From Campylobacterota bacterium (GTDB taxonomy: Bacteria; Campylobacterota; Campylobacteria; Campylobacterales; Sulfurimonadaceae), in NCBI GenBank assembly GCA_034717975.1, contig JAYEMF010000078.1, positions 1 to 14,338 of the forward strand: 14,338 bases of DNA, written 5' to 3'. Positions 6,001-14,338 of the stretch are shown here, one piece after another. Position numbers: made by a program. The number at the start of each line of letters is the position of its first letter. Position 1 is the first letter of the stretch.

Positions 6001-9000
6001 AGCGGTTGACTTTTCACTGGTGACACCAAGTTTTTCTTTGGTGTCCTGGGCATCAGAACTGAGAGTCTGTGCTGATGATGAGATCTGATTCATATCTTGG
6101 GATGTGTGCTCCGTATCACTTGAGATCTCATGAATGTTTTGAGTGATAAGGTTGACATTGGCGCTGATCTCGCTCAGGCTTTTTTGTGTGCGTTCTGCCA
6201 GTTTTCTGACCTCATCGGCAACAACGGCGAAGCCGCGTCCATGTTCACCTGCACGGGCCGCTTCAATAGCTGCATTGAGGGCCAGGAGATTGGTCTGGTC
6301 GGCAATATCACCGATGATGGTAAGAACTTCCTGAATATTTTTGGCCTGTTCCGTCAATGAGTTTACTTTGGTGACAAGATCGTGCTGGCGGTTGGTTCCC
6401 TCTTCGATGCTGTTAACGACATTGTCCAGTTGACTGACAAAAGAGTCGAGTGTGTCTACCGTGATTTCAAGATCTTCTACCGTCGTGATCGATGCTTCTT
6501 CAACACTGTTTAGTTGTGCGCCTACATCGGTAACGAGGGTGTCGACACTGGCGATCTCATTTTTTTGATTTTGGATATTTGCAACAAGATTGTCAATGAT
6601 CTCATCCAGTTTGGTACTTTGCTGTGCGGTAGAGTGGGAAACAGTTGTAGAAGCTTGAATGCTCTGCTGGAAGGCGGCGATCATCTCATTGACTGCGAGG
6701 GCGATATGTGCCAACTCATCCTGCTCATTATGGGTGTCGATCGGAGCAGAGAGATCTTTGGTCGAGGCGATGGTCTGGATCTGTCTGAGGCTGTCAGCCA
6801 CCGAACTGTTGATGCCACGTCTGACCCAGAGAAGGATACCGATCAGGGCAACACCAAATACGATAGAGAAGAGGAGCATTGTAGCCGCTTCAGTATTGGC
6901 CTGAGAGTTGAGTTTTTCAATAGTCTCATCATTGATCTCGGCAATGGTGTCATCAATTCCTTTGAGGACATTGATCTTTTTGGTGATCGTTTTGAACCAG
7001 TGTACGGCATCGGTGTTGAACCCACCGCTGATGGCATTCTCCCGGGCGACCGTTCGCATCGCATCAACCGCACTGACACTCGGGTCTTTCATCCCATTGT
7101 TAAACGAAGCAAGCATCTTCTTATCAGCCAGTGCAACAAAGGAGTCGGCATAACTTACCTGTTCGGCAACAAGGGTGATCCATTTGGCGAACATGCCCGG
7201 TCCGAAAGAGTCCTGGGCAAAGGTTCCGCTCAGTACGGCACGCTCGATCCCTGCACGCTCTTTAGATTTCAGGAAATTGGTATAGGCCGAGAGGGATTTG
7301 ACCAGTTCCGCATTTTGGCTCAGCTTGGCATTGAGACCGGCCACATTAAGGATGTGGCGGTTCATAGTAGTATAGAAGACGACCGCATCTTTGACAGAGG
7401 CTTTGAGTGATTTGACATCGGAGCGCATGGCCTCAATTCTGGAGAGGTAGTTGTTTACTTCATTGATCTCTTTTTGGAGCTCGCCGGAAAAATCATTTAA
7501 ATCCATTGTGTTCAAATAACTTTTATACTCATTGTGGCGTTTATCGGTACTGCTGTGCTGTGCAGGGAGGATATCAACGAACTTTGTCCCTTTTGAACCG
7601 ATGAAACCGGCACTGGCACCGCGCTCTTTTTGCGTTTCGTGGATAAGAAGGCTCAGTTTTTTGGAGAGTCCATTGAGGACAGAGATCTCTTGAAGCTGCT
7701 GTTTTTCTGTTACGGCAGTATAAACAGTTTTACCAATGTTCAGCACAACAAAGATAGAAATGAGTAGAACCATCAGGTTCAGCTTTTGTTTGATCGTCAT
7801 ATTTAATGTCCTTCGAACGCTTAAAGCGGTGATTTCTTTTTGCTTATATTTCCAATTTAATTACTTTAGCCGTTAGCATCTTAAAAAATACTATATCTTC
7901 GGTGCCTATAGGCCTAAAAGCTCTTTTGACACGGTTATGATACCATCACCATCTGCCAGGAGATAGTCACCGTTTCGAAAGGTGACATTTCCAAAGCTGA
8001 GTTCAATGTCCCGTTCACCCGGCTTTTTATCGTGGCTTTTGCGTGGACAGGTGCCCAGCGCCCAGAGTCCGACCGGAATGGTGGAGGTGATATGCGTATC
8101 ACGGACATAGCCGTTGATGATGATACCGGCCCAGTTGTTGTCCCGGGCAAACTTCATCAGGTTTTCGCCCACAACGGCATAATAGGCCGTATTGACGTCA
8201 ACCACAGCGATACGTCCGTTTCCGGGTTCTTTGAGCATGGTAATAAGATCAGTGTTCTCATCATTCAGTTTAAGTGTCGCGACGGGACCGTAACATTTTT
8301 CAGCCCCTCCATAGGATTTATATTCAGGTGTTAAAACCTGTACCTTTTCGCGATGTTCATCACAGATGTCTGCAGTGAAAAATTTCATATTTTTCCTTAT
8401 TTTGGGAAGAGGGAAGGGGGAAGAGGAAAGAGGCTGAGGCGTACGCTCTTTTTTCTCTTCCCACTTTCCCCTTTCCTCTTCACTTTATTGAGGGATTATA
8501 CAGAAAAAAATCTACGATTGGATAGAATTACGGACATATTAAGTTAAAGTAGTTGAATGAAAGTTGTAACAGGCGTAGTCGGTAACGATATCCACGTTGT
8601 CGCCAACAGGCTGATCGATATCTCGCTTGAAGAGCGCGGATTTGAGGTCTTTAATCTTGGGGTAAACACCTACCTTGAGGAGTTTATGGATGCGGTGATC
8701 GAGACCGATGCGGATGTACTGCTGATCTCGTCACTCAATGGTGAAGCAGAGGGTTGGTGCCGTGACCTTCAGATACTCAAAAATCAATACGATTTTCGTG
8801 ATGTCGTCTTTATGATCGGCGGTAATCTTGGTGTGGGTGAGATGGACTCGGAAACGCTGGTGCCAAAATTTCAGAATTATGGCTTTGACCTGGTCTTTCA
8901 CCAGGTCGATCTAAATGAAGGGCTGGACCAGCTTGAAGCCTTTTTGGAGGCGCGCCGATGAGCCTGCTGCAGCGCGAACGCGAGATTATTGTCAATAACG

Positions 9001-12000: not shown

Positions 12001-14338
12001 CAGATGAGAGTGATGTCTCTTTTGAAGAGATTTACAAGTGCTATACCGGTGAGATTGAGTCTGAGATCAAAGGGCATGACAATGCGGCGATTACCTACAG
12101 TTTCGGTTCGACGGGGAACCCGAAAGGGATCGTGATCGACCATCGCGCGCTCATTGACGGAGCACGCATTGTCTCAAAGTACCTCGATATCAAAAGTGAT
12201 GATGTTATCTCCGGCATACTCTCCTTTAACCTTGATTACGGACTCAATCAGATCTTTACGACGCTCTATAAAAAAGCGACACTGGCCATTCATAAATTTG
12301 TCTTGCCAAGCGACTTTTTCACCCATCTCATCAATGACAAGATCACAGTACTGCCGCTGATGCCGATCCACATCACACAGATGTTCGATGAAGACCCTCA
12401 TCGAATCCCTCAGCCAGAACACTTTAAAAACCTGCGGACCATTACATCATCGGGCGGCAATATCACCCCGCTGATGATCAAAAATATTACGACCCATTTC
12501 CAAGATGCCAGTTTCTACTCGATGCATGGTCTGACCGAGGCGTTTCGTTCAGCCTATCTTGACCCAGGCCAGATCCATATCCGTCCCAACTCAATCGGTA
12601 AAGCGATCCCCGATGTAGAGCTCTATATTGTCAACGAAGCGGGCGAAGCGTGCAAACCGCGTGAGGTTGGCGAGCTGATCCATCGTGGTGCCTGTATCTA
12701 TAAAGGGTACTGGAATGCACCGGAAGAGACGGCGCAGCGTTTTAAAAGTATCGGCATCCTCGACAAGGTGATTCATCCGGAAGGGCAGTTAACCGATGAG
12801 ATCGTCATCGCAAGCGGTGATTATGTCTATGCCGATGAAGAGGGTTATATCTACTTCGTTTCGCGTAAGGACGATATGATCAAAACCCAGGGCTTCCGTG
12901 TCAGCCCGCACGAGATAGAGAGTGTTGTCTATGCGAACATCCAGGCGATCACCGAGTGTGCCGTCTTCTCTGTACCGAATGAGGAGATCGAAGAGGAGAT
13001 CGTCATGGTCTATGGAGCCAAGAGTGAACTGGCACGCAACGAGATCCTTTTTGAACTGAAAAAACATCTGCCAAACTATATGCTTCCTGAGCAGATCATC
13101 TATAAAAAAAGTATGCCGCTTAAATCGCTGCATGAGAAGCAGGTCGATAAAGAGGCGTTGCGAAAAGAGTTTCTGGAAATTCTTTAGCCATGCGGCTTTT
13201 TAAAGCAGCTCTGAGCGGCCTTTTTGCTGCTTTCTTGACAGTGCTGCTGATCTTTGGCAGCTGGGTACTCTGGGAGCGAAACCGTGACCCATTTGTCGCC
13301 GTTGACTTTTACCCCGGAAAAGTGAGCCTCTCTGATGACACCTCCTACACCATAGCATTTTCTGATCTCCGCAACAGATCATACCGTCACATCATTTTGT
13401 CAACGGAGCATCTGGGCGATATTGAAGCATTTATCTCTCAGCCAAAGGTGATTCCTCCCAATGGGCTTCCTATCGTTATTATTATGGGTGGTCTCGAGGT
13501 AGGCAGGGATGACTTCAAGCTCATTCCCGATCCCGGAGAAAATATCTATATTATCTTTAAATACCCCTATACTCCGGAGTACTGGTATGAAGGGGCGCCT
13601 CTTGTCGAGATTCCCGTGATCAGAAAATCGGTTTTAAGTGTGCCTTCCCAGGCATTGACGCTATACAGATGGGCCTCTGAGCAGCCGTGGGCAGAAGAGA
13701 GGCGGGTGTTATTTACCGGTTTCAGCTTCGGTGCGATGTTCCTGCCTGCCATTTATCATCTTGCTGCAGGACATGATGAAGCGCTCAATCCAGGTGTCAT
13801 CGCCTATGCGGGGGTGGATATATCGGATATTCTCTATACTAATCTGGAGGAACTTGAAACACCATGGCGCTCACTGGCGGCATGGCTGGGTGAAACGGCT
13901 ATCTATGGCGTTGAACCGGCACGCCATCTGCCCTATACCAAAAATGATTTTTTGCTTATCAACGGGACAAAAGATCATCAGATATCACCCTACAGCTGGA
14001 AAAGACTGCATCAATTGACACCTGATCCAAAAACAGTCGTGATTCTCAACGAGGGGCATATGCATCCCCGTAAACCTGAATTGACCAGAAAACTGGTCAA
14101 AATCAGCAGGGAGTGGCTGCTGGAACGAGGATTGGTTAATTAAGGGTTTTTCTTTTCAGCCCGCTCTTTTTTCTTATAGAGTTTCAGATCTTTTTTTACC
14201 TGTTGACGCAGCTCTTTTTTAAGCATATTCTTGAGCTCTTTTTTTACGAACTTGTTCAGCTTTTTCTTGTCAATCATAACTGATCCTTTTTTTTGAGGTT
14301 AACCTATGATAGATCAAATGAACTTATCAGTTAATTAA

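Follow-up and report, generated by a model that had tools for sequence, protein, structure and literature searches.

What is a B12-dependent glutamate mutase for when its operon ends in a stand-alone adenylating enzyme and its genome lacks a methylaspartate ammonia-lyase? The question is raised by a contig from a Sulfurimonadaceae member of the Campylobacterota, analyzed here as a window of 14,338 nt. The reading that we favor, with moderate confidence, is that glutamate is converted to 3-methylaspartate, which is activated as an acyl-adenylate and passed to an acceptor outside the cassette, with an RraA-like protein as an obligatory third part. It is supported by the substrate residues of GlmE, a ligase pocket with VinN as its only PDB match, perfect co-occurrence of mutase and ligase, and distant operons that include ACP and PLP decarboxylase genes. 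A preliminary description had proposed synthesis of 3-methylaspartate without the lyase and its VinN-like activation. Both stand at the level of sequence, while the clade of the ligase, the number of genes, and the breadth of their distribution are revised. Literature searches found no paper on this Campylobacterota cassette or on the metagenomic ligase-mutase operons discussed below.

Composition and distribution of the gene unit

Profile matches recover every gene named in the preliminary description at the coordinates given there, and the region is laid out as follows.

7906-8388, minus strand: RraA-like gene, divergent from glmS, 160 aa; PF03737 125 bits, NF006875 157 bits (cut-off 136)
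8389-8556, no strand: divergent intergenic region, containing an 80-nt GA-rich/CT-rich hairpin at 8404-8483
8557-8961, plus strand: GlmS, B12-binding subunit of glutamate mutase, 134 aa; NF002612 166 bits (cut-off 110), PF02310
8958-10319, plus strand: GlmE, catalytic subunit of glutamate mutase, 453 aa; PF06368 396 bits
10316-11497, plus strand: short GlmL/MutL-like ASKHA ATPase, 393 aa; PF13941 94 bits
11498-11612, no strand: glmL-ligase spacer, 115 nt, with an AAGGAG ribosome-binding site read from the sequence 8 nt upstream of the ATG
11613-13187, plus strand: stand-alone adenylate-forming ligase assigned by sequence to the VinN/TIGR03098 clade, 524 aa; PF00501 217 bits
13190-14143, plus strand: alpha/beta-hydrolase-like protein with a membrane anchor, 317 aa; only weak Pfam hits (Peptidase_S9, Abhydrolase_1)

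The glmS/glmE and glmE/glmL junctions are 4-nt overlaps. In relatives, glmL and the ligase gene are typically 15 nt apart (median; range 5-66, n = 63). The spacer of the window gave no Rfam match and no surplus of promoter- or terminator-like sites, and an ORF between glmL and the ligase gene (11385-11609) matches no family and does not resemble a carrier protein. The RraA-like/glmS spacer measures 168 nt in the window versus about 90 nt in relatives such as locus L001. Its hairpin folds at -58.3 kcal/mol (z = -4.4), similar arms are present on many contigs of the genome, and the only Rfam matches are sub-threshold and resemble miRNA precursors, as a long hairpin would.

Among 401 sampled Campylobacterota genomes, ligase and GlmE occur together in 37 and are both missing from 364, a perfect co-occurrence. 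The cassette is patchy rather than spread through Campylobacterota at large, as had been thought: 5 of 14 families have it, and none of the 276 genomes of the two largest does. GlmS-GlmE-GlmL lies directly upstream of the ligase in 48 of the 58 loci with room for them (one more, L014, was missed only through alignment overlap), and in all five tested cases of unlinked genes GlmE is encoded elsewhere in the genome. The earlier count of 78 loci with an adenylation enzyme 60-91% identical was reproduced, as were the GlmE and ligase identities for four relatives: Sulfurovum CS9 (L057; 95% and 87%), Arcobacter 15-2 (L074; 73% and 61%), a Sulfurospirillum MAG (L051; 74% and 64%), and BB26 (L030; 89% and 81%). 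The flanks had been called unrelated; for BB26 this is incorrect, because Fur, ABC transporter, RR-PAS-SpoIIE, and NIT-MCP genes lie upstream in both BB26 and the window.

The conserved unit has five genes, not the four first described. In its distribution the RraA-like gene strictly follows the others: it is present in 39 of 401 genomes, namely all 37 with the cassette and 2 of the 364 others (G278 and G365). Where it does not adjoin the cassette, it is found elsewhere in the genome (5/5). This distribution makes the RraA-like protein an obligatory third component. The hydrolase-like gene, in contrast, is lineage-specific and outside the conserved unit. It encodes a GFSFG motif and its start codon is 2 nt past the ligase stop. 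Where 1.2 kb or more is available after the ligase (66 loci), a 40-aa remnant in L030 is the single match, and a 41-genome family sample yielded the gene from the window's genome and G431 alone. No gene recurs downstream of the ligase across the 66 loci. Nor do the 78 loci show a carrier protein, PLP decarboxylase, or acyltransferase as a conserved neighbor of the cassette.

Glutamate mutase without an ammonia-lyase

GlmE scores 381.7 bits against TIGR01503, 8 bits short of the equivalog cut-off of 390.1, and matches PDB entry 6h9e_B at 5.4e-83. Alignment to this structure shows that GlmE retains the equivalents of R66, R100, R149, H150, E171, Y177, Y181, K326, and E330, which we take to be the glutamate- and adenosyl-contacting residues mapped from the Clostridium enzyme. 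None of the nine varies among 54 Campylobacterota sequences or 8 distant ones. In GlmS, D11-x-H13 of the DxHxxG motif is kept with Ala in place of Gly (DxHxxA), and GNDIHVVANR is a stretch with little or no variation (n = 55). The GlmL-like protein covers positions 2-319 of 450 in PF13941 and reaches 77 bits against NF040745 (cut-off 475); its motifs DIGSTYFK, DIGGATTDIH, and LTGG vary little or not at all across 67 sequences. Points against the favored reading are the GlmE score below the cut-off, the Ala in the GlmS motif, and the lack of a recognizable cobalamin adenosyltransferase in 36 of the 37 cassette genomes.

The fermentative Clostridium operon (glmS-glmL-glmE; PDB 1CCW/1I9C/6H9E) has three proteins in common with the window, where GlmE keeps every mapped substrate and cofactor residue. 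The gene order differs (S-E-L in the window), the window GlmL is short, and GlmE forms a separate branch with 37-39% identity to enterobacterial and Peptoclostridium GlmE on plasmid records. Moreover, the Clostridium operon includes methylaspartate ammonia-lyase, whereas the window operon ends in the ligase. The lyase was reported absent in the preliminary description, and the 99.9% complete genome bears this out: the best TIGR01502 score is 36.7 bits (cut-off 286), and the sole MAAL_C match is partial. On the basis of the conserved residues, adenosylcobalamin-dependent GlmS and GlmE would convert L-glutamate to (2S,3S)-3-methylaspartate, serviced by the short GlmL-type ATPase. Since there is no methylaspartate ammonia-lyase, this product is presumably not fermented.

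A VinN-like ligase and its distant relatives

The ligase matches TIGR03098 over its full length (480.4 bits, about 35% identity, cut-off 592) and TIGR01733 at 234 bits, also under cut-off. A search reproduced the PDB matches first quoted for it: LgrA (9.9e-65), TycA (9.3e-44), GrsA (1.1e-40), 3wvn (1.4e-39), and 3wv4 (8.1e-32). It had been described as a stand-alone NRPS-type enzyme. It does stand alone, but the 480 bits to TIGR03098 versus 234 to TIGR01733 set it apart from ordinary NRPS A domains, and its sequence makes it a member of the VinN/TIGR03098 clade. Motifs A3, A8, and A10-Lys were found.

The pocket region (aa 190-346) has VinN, an enzyme that activates 3-methylaspartate, as its sole match among 177,635 PDB sequences (3wv4/3wv5/3wvn, E 1.8e-6), and the alignment is ungapped across the beta13-beta14 loop, which is equal in length. 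Ligase D208, Y209, S280, and R312 align with VinN D230, F231, S299, and R331, pocket residues named in section 2.3 of PMC11253843. Four of the five named residues are thus shared; the fifth, VinN K330, is Phe311 in the ligase. All 75 orthologs keep D208, Y209, G210, N212, Q213, S280, E309, A310, and R312.

The nearest named family belongs to the TIGR03098/TIGR03099/ACP trio of exosortase A (XrtA) polysaccharide loci. It has in common with the window ligase the motif GLTEAFRS.YLDP, including the loop Phe-Arg, and a pocket region with VinN as best match, in one case even better (8.7e-15). VinN-likeness is therefore common to the whole clade and favors an Asp-type substrate without singling out the methyl group. 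The window ligase nevertheless forms a clade apart in the tree (100/100 support, long stem), carries Tyr and Ser at positions that are Ala and Thr in TIGR03098, and lacks the adjoining decarboxylase, ACP, and polysaccharide context of the trio.

Of 30 distant metagenomic loci with ligases 32-44% identical, 15 also encode GlmS/GlmE, mostly in the order ligase-S-E-L; L174 retains S-E-L ahead of the ligase. The fullest encode a GNAT-like protein, ACP, ligase, GlmS, GlmE, GlmL, and PLP decarboxylase inside XrtA/PEP-CTERM polysaccharide loci and, to judge by analogy, follow vicenistatin logic. Four of these operons (L139, L151, L115, and L152) have the ligase subclade motif DYG[LM]NQ ... EAFRS and mutase key residues identical to those of the window. 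They differ in placing the ligase first, in a full-length GlmL (about 428 aa), in the presence of ACP, GNAT-like protein, and decarboxylase, and in the absence of an RraA-like gene from the locus. The position of VinN F231 is Tyr in 9/9 mutase-linked distant ligases, His in 6/6 linked to a decarboxylase without mutase, and Ala in 3/3 of TIGR03098 type; Tyr also occurs in nine distant ligases with no mutase seen, most of them on short contigs.

On these grounds the ligase is predicted to activate 3-methylaspartate. It is very improbable that its substrate is instead L-aspartate or L-glutamate, tied to the mutase only through shared regulation or history. VinN also binds L-Asp according to the structure table of PMC11253843, K330 is not retained, and mutase-free clade members exist (TIGR03098 type and D-H type). 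Such an indirect tie fits poorly, however, with co-occurrence across 401 genomes that persists in 5/5 genomes with unlinked genes, with the joint retention of ligase and mutase in two different gene orders, and with a Tyr at the F231 position that follows mutase linkage.

Decidedly doubtful, too, is a version of the mesaconate pathway serving catabolism or assimilation, in which 3-methylaspartyl-CoA made by the ligase would yield mesaconyl-CoA and ammonia, followed by hydration and cleavage into central metabolism, so that a CoA-dependent route substituted for the missing lyase. The nearest family is annotated as acyl-CoA ligase, the PDB and NCBIfam matches of the ligase include malonyl-CoA synthetase, and the genome has one HpcH/CitE-type lyase. 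Against this, the 78 loci show no lyase, hydratase, or CoA-ester enzyme as a companion of the cassette, the related operons are biosynthetic (ACP, GNAT-like protein, polysaccharide genes), and the pocket retains the amino-group Asp typical of amino-acid-activating enzymes.

Possible fate of the activated product

In the favored reading, the VinN pocket match suggests that the ligase adenylates 3-methylaspartate, probably at the C4 (beta) carboxyl, with Asp208 holding the amino group and Arg312 the free alpha-carboxylate. The acyl group would then pass to an acceptor not encoded by the cassette. This could be a thiol, either CoA or that of a carrier protein with its gene elsewhere, or else an amine or hydroxyl on a metabolite or a component of the envelope.

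The vicenistatin-type macrolactam starter pathway, described for the Pac cluster in PMC10662134, comprises the VinH/VinI mutase, the VinN adenylation enzyme, the VinL ACP, and the VinO PLP decarboxylase. It likewise couples glutamate mutase to a stand-alone adenylating enzyme in a non-fermentative use, which for the window is our reading, and VinN and the window ligase have the Asp, aromatic, Ser, and Arg residues in common. Unlike that pathway, the window has an RraA-like protein, its hosts are chemolithoautotrophic Campylobacterota rather than actinomycetes, and the ACP, PLP decarboxylase, second adenylation enzyme, acyltransferase, and PKS are neither nearby nor recognizable in the genome.

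It is unlikely that the full vicenistatin-type route operates with partners in trans, the ligase loading 3-methylaspartate onto a carrier and a decarboxylase producing a 3-amino-2-methylpropionyl unit for a lipid, polyketide-like product, or glycan. Precedents are the sister-clade operons, with ACP and a TIGR03099-like decarboxylase beside the same ligase type and mutase, and TIGR03098 loci on Aureimonas and S. meliloti plasmids (ligase, decarboxylase, ACP). The genome has three stand-alone carriers besides AcpP and a PP-binding domain in a 957-aa protein. However, neither type of dedicated ACP has a homolog in it, nor do the GNAT-like protein of the sister operons and the hydrolase of L174; a search for the TIGR03099-type decarboxylase gave only LysA-like (216 bits) and SpeA-like (65 bits) genes; the C37 ACP-E1/E2-ligase cluster is also present in cassette-negative genomes G281 and G236; and no such partner adjoins the cassette in 78 loci.

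The remaining constant partner is the RraA-like protein. G74, R96, and D97 are the same in all 45 orthologs, with E or D at position 75 throughout. The acidic residue four positions past the Arg, which presumably belongs to the catalytic motif, is not kept: position 100 is I, N, V, E, or Q. The protein has the PF03737 fold family in common with E. coli RraA and P. putida HMG/CHA aldolase (PDB 3NOJ) and keeps the equivalents of Gly-101, Arg-123, and Asp-124 of the HMG/CHA aldolase family. RraA relatives include Mg-dependent oxaloacetate decarboxylase/HMG aldolases, according to PMC5065237, with an Arg-123/Asp-124 pair that corresponds to R96/D97. No RNase E/G, the target of a regulatory RraA, was found in the genome. 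A strict tie to a B12 mutase-ligase cassette was not found described for either the RraA or the HMG/CHA aldolase family in the literature consulted. Retention of the Arg/Asp pair of class II pyruvate aldolases and oxaloacetate decarboxylases suggests that the protein may act on a 2-oxo acid intermediate, such as 3-methyloxaloacetate from transamination; alternatively, it may replace the ACP/decarboxylase/GNAT set of the sister operons.

Its strict co-distribution with the mutase, the R96/D97 pair, and the lack of RNase E/G would also suit a route to isoleucine, with 3-methylaspartate transaminated to 3-methyloxaloacetate, decarboxylated by the RraA-like protein to 2-oxobutyrate, and the ligase in a side function. 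We consider this quite improbable. It is weakened by the presence of threonine ammonia-lyase (IlvA; 535.7 bits, cut-off 378.75), a core amino acid route is a poor fit to 37 of 401 genomes, position 100 is variable, and the equally co-distributed ligase is left unexplained.

As judged from sequence, activation of 3-methylaspartate within a self-contained anabolic module is the best explanation of the unit. In sulfur-oxidizing Campylobacterota, the pairing of a B12 glutamate mutase with a ligase that seems suited to activate its product points to an undescribed biosynthetic use.

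Organization and linkage of the cassette

ORF listing and family scans confirm that the genes reported in the preliminary description occupy positions 7906-13187 of the window. The gene that follows the ligase is listed last.

7906-8388, minus strand: RraA-like gene
8557-8961, plus strand: glmS
8958-10319, plus strand: glmE
10316-11497, plus strand: short glmL/mutL, 393 aa
11613-13187, plus strand: AMP-binding enzyme (the ligase), 524 aa
13190-14143, starting 2 nt past the ligase stop: alpha/beta-hydrolase-like gene, 317 aa

Overlaps of 4 nt join glmS to glmE and glmE to glmL, and the spacer between glmL and the ligase gene is 115 nt in the window against a median of 15 nt in relatives (n = 63). 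The association of the mutase genes with the ligase, claimed earlier, is borne out across the phylum. Of the 78 related loci, 58 extend for 3.1 kb or more 5' of the ligase gene, and 48 of these 58 encode GlmS, GlmE and GlmL immediately before it in that order. L014 is a further such locus, skipped only owing to an alignment overlap. Three others have insertions between cassette genes (L025, L043, L070), four have GlmL alone beside the ligase (L018, L019, L068, L078), and two have a ligase without cassette neighbours (L054, L061). GlmE is encoded elsewhere in all five tested genomes of these nine loci. In L018, L019 and L078 an AAA_15/AAA_21 ATPase gene lies between glmL and the ligase gene (L018:8314-9985, L019:8118-9992, L078:3335-3901), accompanied in the first two by a small unknown gene; these inserts look like mobile or defence-type insertions. 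Among the 66 loci that extend far enough 3' of the ligase, no recurring gene was found there.

Linkage also holds at the level of whole genomes. In an evenly drawn set of 401 high-quality Campylobacterota genomes, every genome with the ligase (at least 60% identity) also has a GlmE-family protein and vice versa; 37 genomes hold the pair, the window's genome counted. With that genome left out, the cassette is found in 4/34, 8/20, 10/23, 13/19 and 1/4 members of individual families; no instance was found in the two largest families (0/118 and 0/158) or in the seven small ones. Because related genomes are not independent, the counts should be read as evidence of linkage and not as a statistical test. 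The window ligase is 86-88% identical to those of a family near Sulfurovum in the tree and 63-70% identical to those within its own sampled family, while the flanks are syntenic with a Sulfurimonadaceae MAG, which suggests that the cassette was transferred between members of the phylum.

An 80-nt hairpin at 8404-8483 lies in the rraA-glmS spacer, with a purine-rich arm (GGGAAGAGG...) and a pyrimidine-rich opposite arm. Because many contigs of the genome carry similar arms, the hairpin is a dispersed intergenic repeat; it is missing from the shorter rraA-glmS spacer of relatives. Rfam yields only sub-threshold, hairpin-like matches in the cassette spacers, disfavouring a riboswitch or other RNA, and promoter- or terminator-like sites in the spacers show no excess over shuffled sequences. 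A 74-aa ORF at 11385-11609 was rejected as a hidden carrier protein, having an implausible sequence and no family match. Upstream, at 3757-7800, are a NIT-domain chemoreceptor and a response regulator-PAS-SpoIIE phosphatase with a HATPase_c_2 domain. These regulatory and chemotaxis genes are unrelated to the cassette and show synteny only with the Sulfurimonadaceae MAG BB26.

The downstream hydrolase is membrane-anchored, coupled to the ligase and lineage-specific. It was discarded as an acyl-transfer partner, as it is not conserved among relatives and shows no relationship to the hydrolase or the hypothetical proteins encoded at related loci; BB26, the closest syntenic relative, retains just a 40-aa C-terminal remnant (L030:11846-11965). 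In the metagenome locus L174, glmL and the ligase gene are separated by an alpha/beta hydrolase gene of a different, unrelated kind. Sequencing runs for the genome comprise four DNA runs from a single study with a brine metagenome label, and none of RNA is listed.

Active sites of the mutase and the ligase

Glutamate mutase is known from glutamate fermentation and from a few actinomycete antibiotic pathways. GlmE scores 396 bits against PF06368 (cut-off 26.6) and 381.7 bits against the equivalog model TIGR01503, 8 bits below its cut-off of 390.1. The GlmE of C. cochlearium (6h9e_B) is matched at 5.4e-83 by HMMER, and in that alignment the equivalents of R66, R100, R149, H150, E171, Y177, Y181, K326 and E330 are all kept. 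These nine residues are invariant in 54/54 Campylobacterota and 8/8 distant metagenomic GlmE sequences; in the C. cochlearium enzyme, glutamate and the adenosyl ribose are bound by R66, R100, R149, E171, Y181, K326 and E330. GlmS exceeds the NF002612 cut-off, and its B12 motif, D11-I-H13-V-V-A16, keeps the Asp and His of the base-off/His-on DxHxxG form with Ala in place of Gly, a form conserved in 55 sequences. GlmL retains the ASKHA ATPase motifs. A search for plasmid relatives of GlmE returned solely canonical or Streptomyces-type mutases at no more than 39% identity. The absence of methylaspartate ammonia-lyase, also reported earlier, stands: in this 99.9% complete genome the best TIGR01502 match is 36.7 bits against a cut-off of 286, and MAAL_C gives a partial match only.

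The ligase contains PF00501 and PF13193 and has the ANL motifs A3 (YSFGSTGNPKG), A8 (SRKDDMIKTQGFRV) and the A10 Lys (in HEK), which aligns with the NGK of TIGR03098 ligases. Its description as an NRPS-type enzyme holds in part. The full-length PDB matches are indeed NRPS A domains, but the ligase scores 234.5 bits against the amino-acid adenylation model TIGR01733, under the cut-off of 317.4, and its best curated family is TIGR03098, "exosortase A system-associated acyl-CoA ligase" (480.4 bits over the whole length, cut-off 592.35). No T or C domain lies near this stand-alone enzyme. Among the top 150 hits of a protein-representative search there is one stand-alone relative (P0125), the others being mostly multi-module NRPS. 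In the ESM Atlas, the ligase's own cluster has 627 members, mostly Campylobacterota, and the others are unnamed AMP-binding clusters.

The specificity-conferring region alone (residues 190-346) matches as its sole PDB sequences the two of VinN, the 3-methylaspartate-activating enzyme of the vicenistatin pathway (3wv4/3wv5 and 3wvn; E 1.8e-6). The review PMC11253843 describes VinN as taking (2S,3S)-3-methylaspartate as a beta-amino acid, with substrate contacts from D230, F231 and S299 and, in the loop, from K330 and R331. HMMER aligns these without gaps to D208, Y209, S280, F311 and R312 of the ligase, so that with D208, Y209, S280 and R312 four of the five residues are alike in kind and the beta13-beta14 loop has the VinN length. 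The segment after TE is about three residues shorter than in 12 NRPS A domains. D208, Y209, G210, N212, Q213, S280, E309, A310 and R312 are invariant in 75/75 orthologs (60-91% identity); the K330 position holds Phe311 in the ligase and Leu in four of the 75.

A still better pocket match to VinN (8.7e-15) comes from a TIGR03098 ligase encoded on an Aureimonas plasmid, indicating that VinN-likeness is a property of the whole clade, and the motif GLTEAFRS.YLDP is common to this ligase and that of the window. Two positions "opposite the loop" are Tyr/Ser in the window ligase, Phe/Ser in VinN and Ala/Thr in TIGR03098. The proposal of VinN-like activation in the preliminary description is supported by the pocket match and four of the five contacts, but is tempered by Phe311 in place of K330 and by a likeness that extends across the clade. 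On sequence grounds, the ligase is predicted to adenylate (2S,3S)-3-methylaspartate.

Metagenomic relatives and ligase phylogeny

A scan of metagenome contigs with a pattern of conserved ligase residues, which biases what is found, recovered at least 80 loci with DNA. Among those listed, 45 are of Campylobacterota type, with ligases 57-87% identical, the S-E-L-ligase order and an RraA-like gene wherever there is room; 30 have ligases 32-44% identical, and five are chance matches. GlmS and/or GlmE genes are present in 15 of the 30 distant loci listed, mostly in another order. The fullest examples (L139:6043-13239, L151:6159-13207 and L115:283-7462) encode a GNAT-like protein, an ACP, the ligase, GlmS, GlmE, a full-length GlmL and a PLP decarboxylase closest to TIGR03099. 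Genes flanking these operons encode an XrtA-system polysaccharide deacetylase (over cut-off) as well as a PrsT-like TPR protein and glycosyltransferases, and the loci are of the XrtA/PEP-CTERM polysaccharide kind. By analogy, the gene content is that of vicenistatin starter-unit logic within an exopolysaccharide locus, and the operons look like an equivalent of that starter pathway for decorating exopolysaccharides. A literature search found no paper on operons of this composition. TIGR03098 loci on Aureimonas and S. meliloti plasmids are likewise polysaccharide loci, with a hypothetical protein, ligase and decarboxylase and an ACP nearby, but without a mutase.

The residue at the VinN F231 position follows gene context. 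It is Tyr in all nine mutase-linked distant ligases listed and in 75/75 Campylobacterota ligases, His in 6/6 listed ligases whose gene precedes a decarboxylase gene, with no mutase, and Ala in 3/3 TIGR03098-type ligases. Nine more Tyr-type ligases listed are mostly on short contigs with no mutase seen, and their neighbours include N-acetyltransferase-like, GNAT and PEP-utilising enzymes. A 1039-aa protein (L106:3062-6181) combines a ligase of the clade with a B12-binding radical SAM domain in one chain.

In an IQ-TREE phylogeny of 32 rows, two paralogs encoded in the window's genome fall outside the ligase clade (98/98). The ligases from Campylobacterota group together in one clade (100/100) with a stem length of 1.23, their sister clade (95/97) comprises the ACP/decarboxylase-linked forms, and the TIGR03098 type branches outside both. 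The window ligase differs from the TIGR03098 exosortase-A ligases in its sub-cut-off score, the lack of an adjacent decarboxylase and its separate clade.

Accessory proteins and the proposed pathway

The RraA-like protein occurs in 39 of the 401 genomes, namely the same 37 cassette genomes and two more, and where its gene does not adjoin the cassette it is still in the genome (5/5 cases). The neighbours of such unlinked genes are unrelated housekeeping genes and were set aside as a functional clue. Although the protein exceeds the NF006875 cut-off, regulation of RNase E is unlikely, because the 99.9% complete genome has no match to RNase E/G (PF10150). PMC5065237 assigns a catalytic role to Arg-123 and metal binding to Asp-124 and Glu-199 in HMG/CHA aldolase. 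The RraA-like protein keeps equivalents of Gly-101, Arg-123 and Asp-124 of that enzyme, and its R96 and D97 are invariant in 45/45 orthologs. A second acidic metal ligand is not evident in the orthologs, in which position 100 varies and position 75 is always Glu or Asp, and the score against NF009134 is 124.9 bits (cut-off 196).

The RraA-like gene accompanies the Campylobacterota cassette, which lacks the ACP, GNAT-like and decarboxylase genes; it was not seen in the distant loci that have them. The protein may have a new partner role. Alternatively, it may act as a decarboxylase on a 2-oxo acid of the pathway, such as 3-methyloxaloacetate formed through transamination, and this reaction could be a pathway step or a safeguard. 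An alternative raised earlier, conversion of methylaspartate to 2-oxobutyrate for isoleucine, is weakened because the genome has a full-scoring IlvA; a citramalate synthase was not found in the genome. Some mutase-less ligases of the clade adjoin parts of PEP-utilising enzymes, PPDK_N with a mobile domain in L179:1379-3883 and a PEP-binding domain in L134:849-1850. PMC5065237 likens the RraA/HMG-aldolase fold to the phosphohistidine swivel domain of PEP-utilising enzymes, which in relation to these neighbours may be coincidence.

Cofactor supply poses a separate problem. Cobalamin adenosyltransferases of the CobA type (PF02572) and PduO/EutT type (PF01923) are absent from the window's genome. 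Searches likewise detected neither type in 36 of the 37 genomes with the cassette, although 22 of the 37 carry CobS. In the window's genome an operon on another contig (G000:C148:194-7346) encodes a TonB receptor, CobU, CobS, CobC, BtuF, BtuD and BtuC, and ends in a 148-aa ORF without a family match.

The earlier statement that no carrier, decarboxylase or condensation partner lies beside the operon extends to its relatives: a dedicated ACP and PLP decarboxylase are absent from all 78 loci, and none is recognisable in the window's genome. PP-binding matches in this genome number five, namely AcpP, three other stand-alone carriers that sit in clusters of other kinds, and one domain in a 957-aa protein. 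The carrier-protein cluster on contig C37 was dismissed as a partner, being present in cassette-negative genomes too. Homologs of either dedicated ACP type, of the GNAT-like protein and of the L174 hydrolase were not found in the genome, nor was a TIGR03099-like decarboxylase beyond LysA-like and SpeA-like genes. The cassette shares a mutase and a VinN-type ligase with the vicenistatin system but is missing its carrier, decarboxylase and transferase.

A non-fermentative pathway with an acceptor outside the cassette has the best support and is judged reasonably probable. The adenosylcobalamin-dependent mutase would convert glutamate to 3-methylaspartate, the ligase would convert this to an acyl-adenylate, probably at C4, and the RraA-fold protein would be an obligatory third part. 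A carrier-independent pathway, in which the ligase would join 3-methylaspartate through its beta-carboxyl directly to an amine, hydroxyl or thiol of a common kind, seems improbable; it would have the RraA-fold protein newly recruited and yield an undescribed 3-methylaspartate-derived metabolite or envelope decoration in chemolithoautotrophs of vents, sediments and brines. On this reading, given the missing adenosyltransferases, the RraA-fold protein or the short GlmL might even provide the cofactor or reload it.

No paper on the Campylobacterota cassette was found by full-text search, and the two papers found to join "glutamate mutase", "adenylation" and "3-methylaspartate" are macrolactam papers. 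The pathway with an outside acceptor would bring radical B12 chemistry to autotrophic sulfur oxidisers, in a gene unit that is compact and strongly conserved. Since these hosts neither ferment glutamate nor have the usual carrier-protein machinery, 3-methylaspartate must feed an undescribed product. The strict co-distribution of mutase, ligase and RraA-like protein defines a small gene set for expression and knockout, and the carrier genomes without a known adenosyltransferase raise the testable question of how adenosylcobalamin is made there. Finally, the sister operons in exopolysaccharide loci suggest a widespread, unstudied role for this ligase clade in decorating surface polymers with amino-acyl groups.
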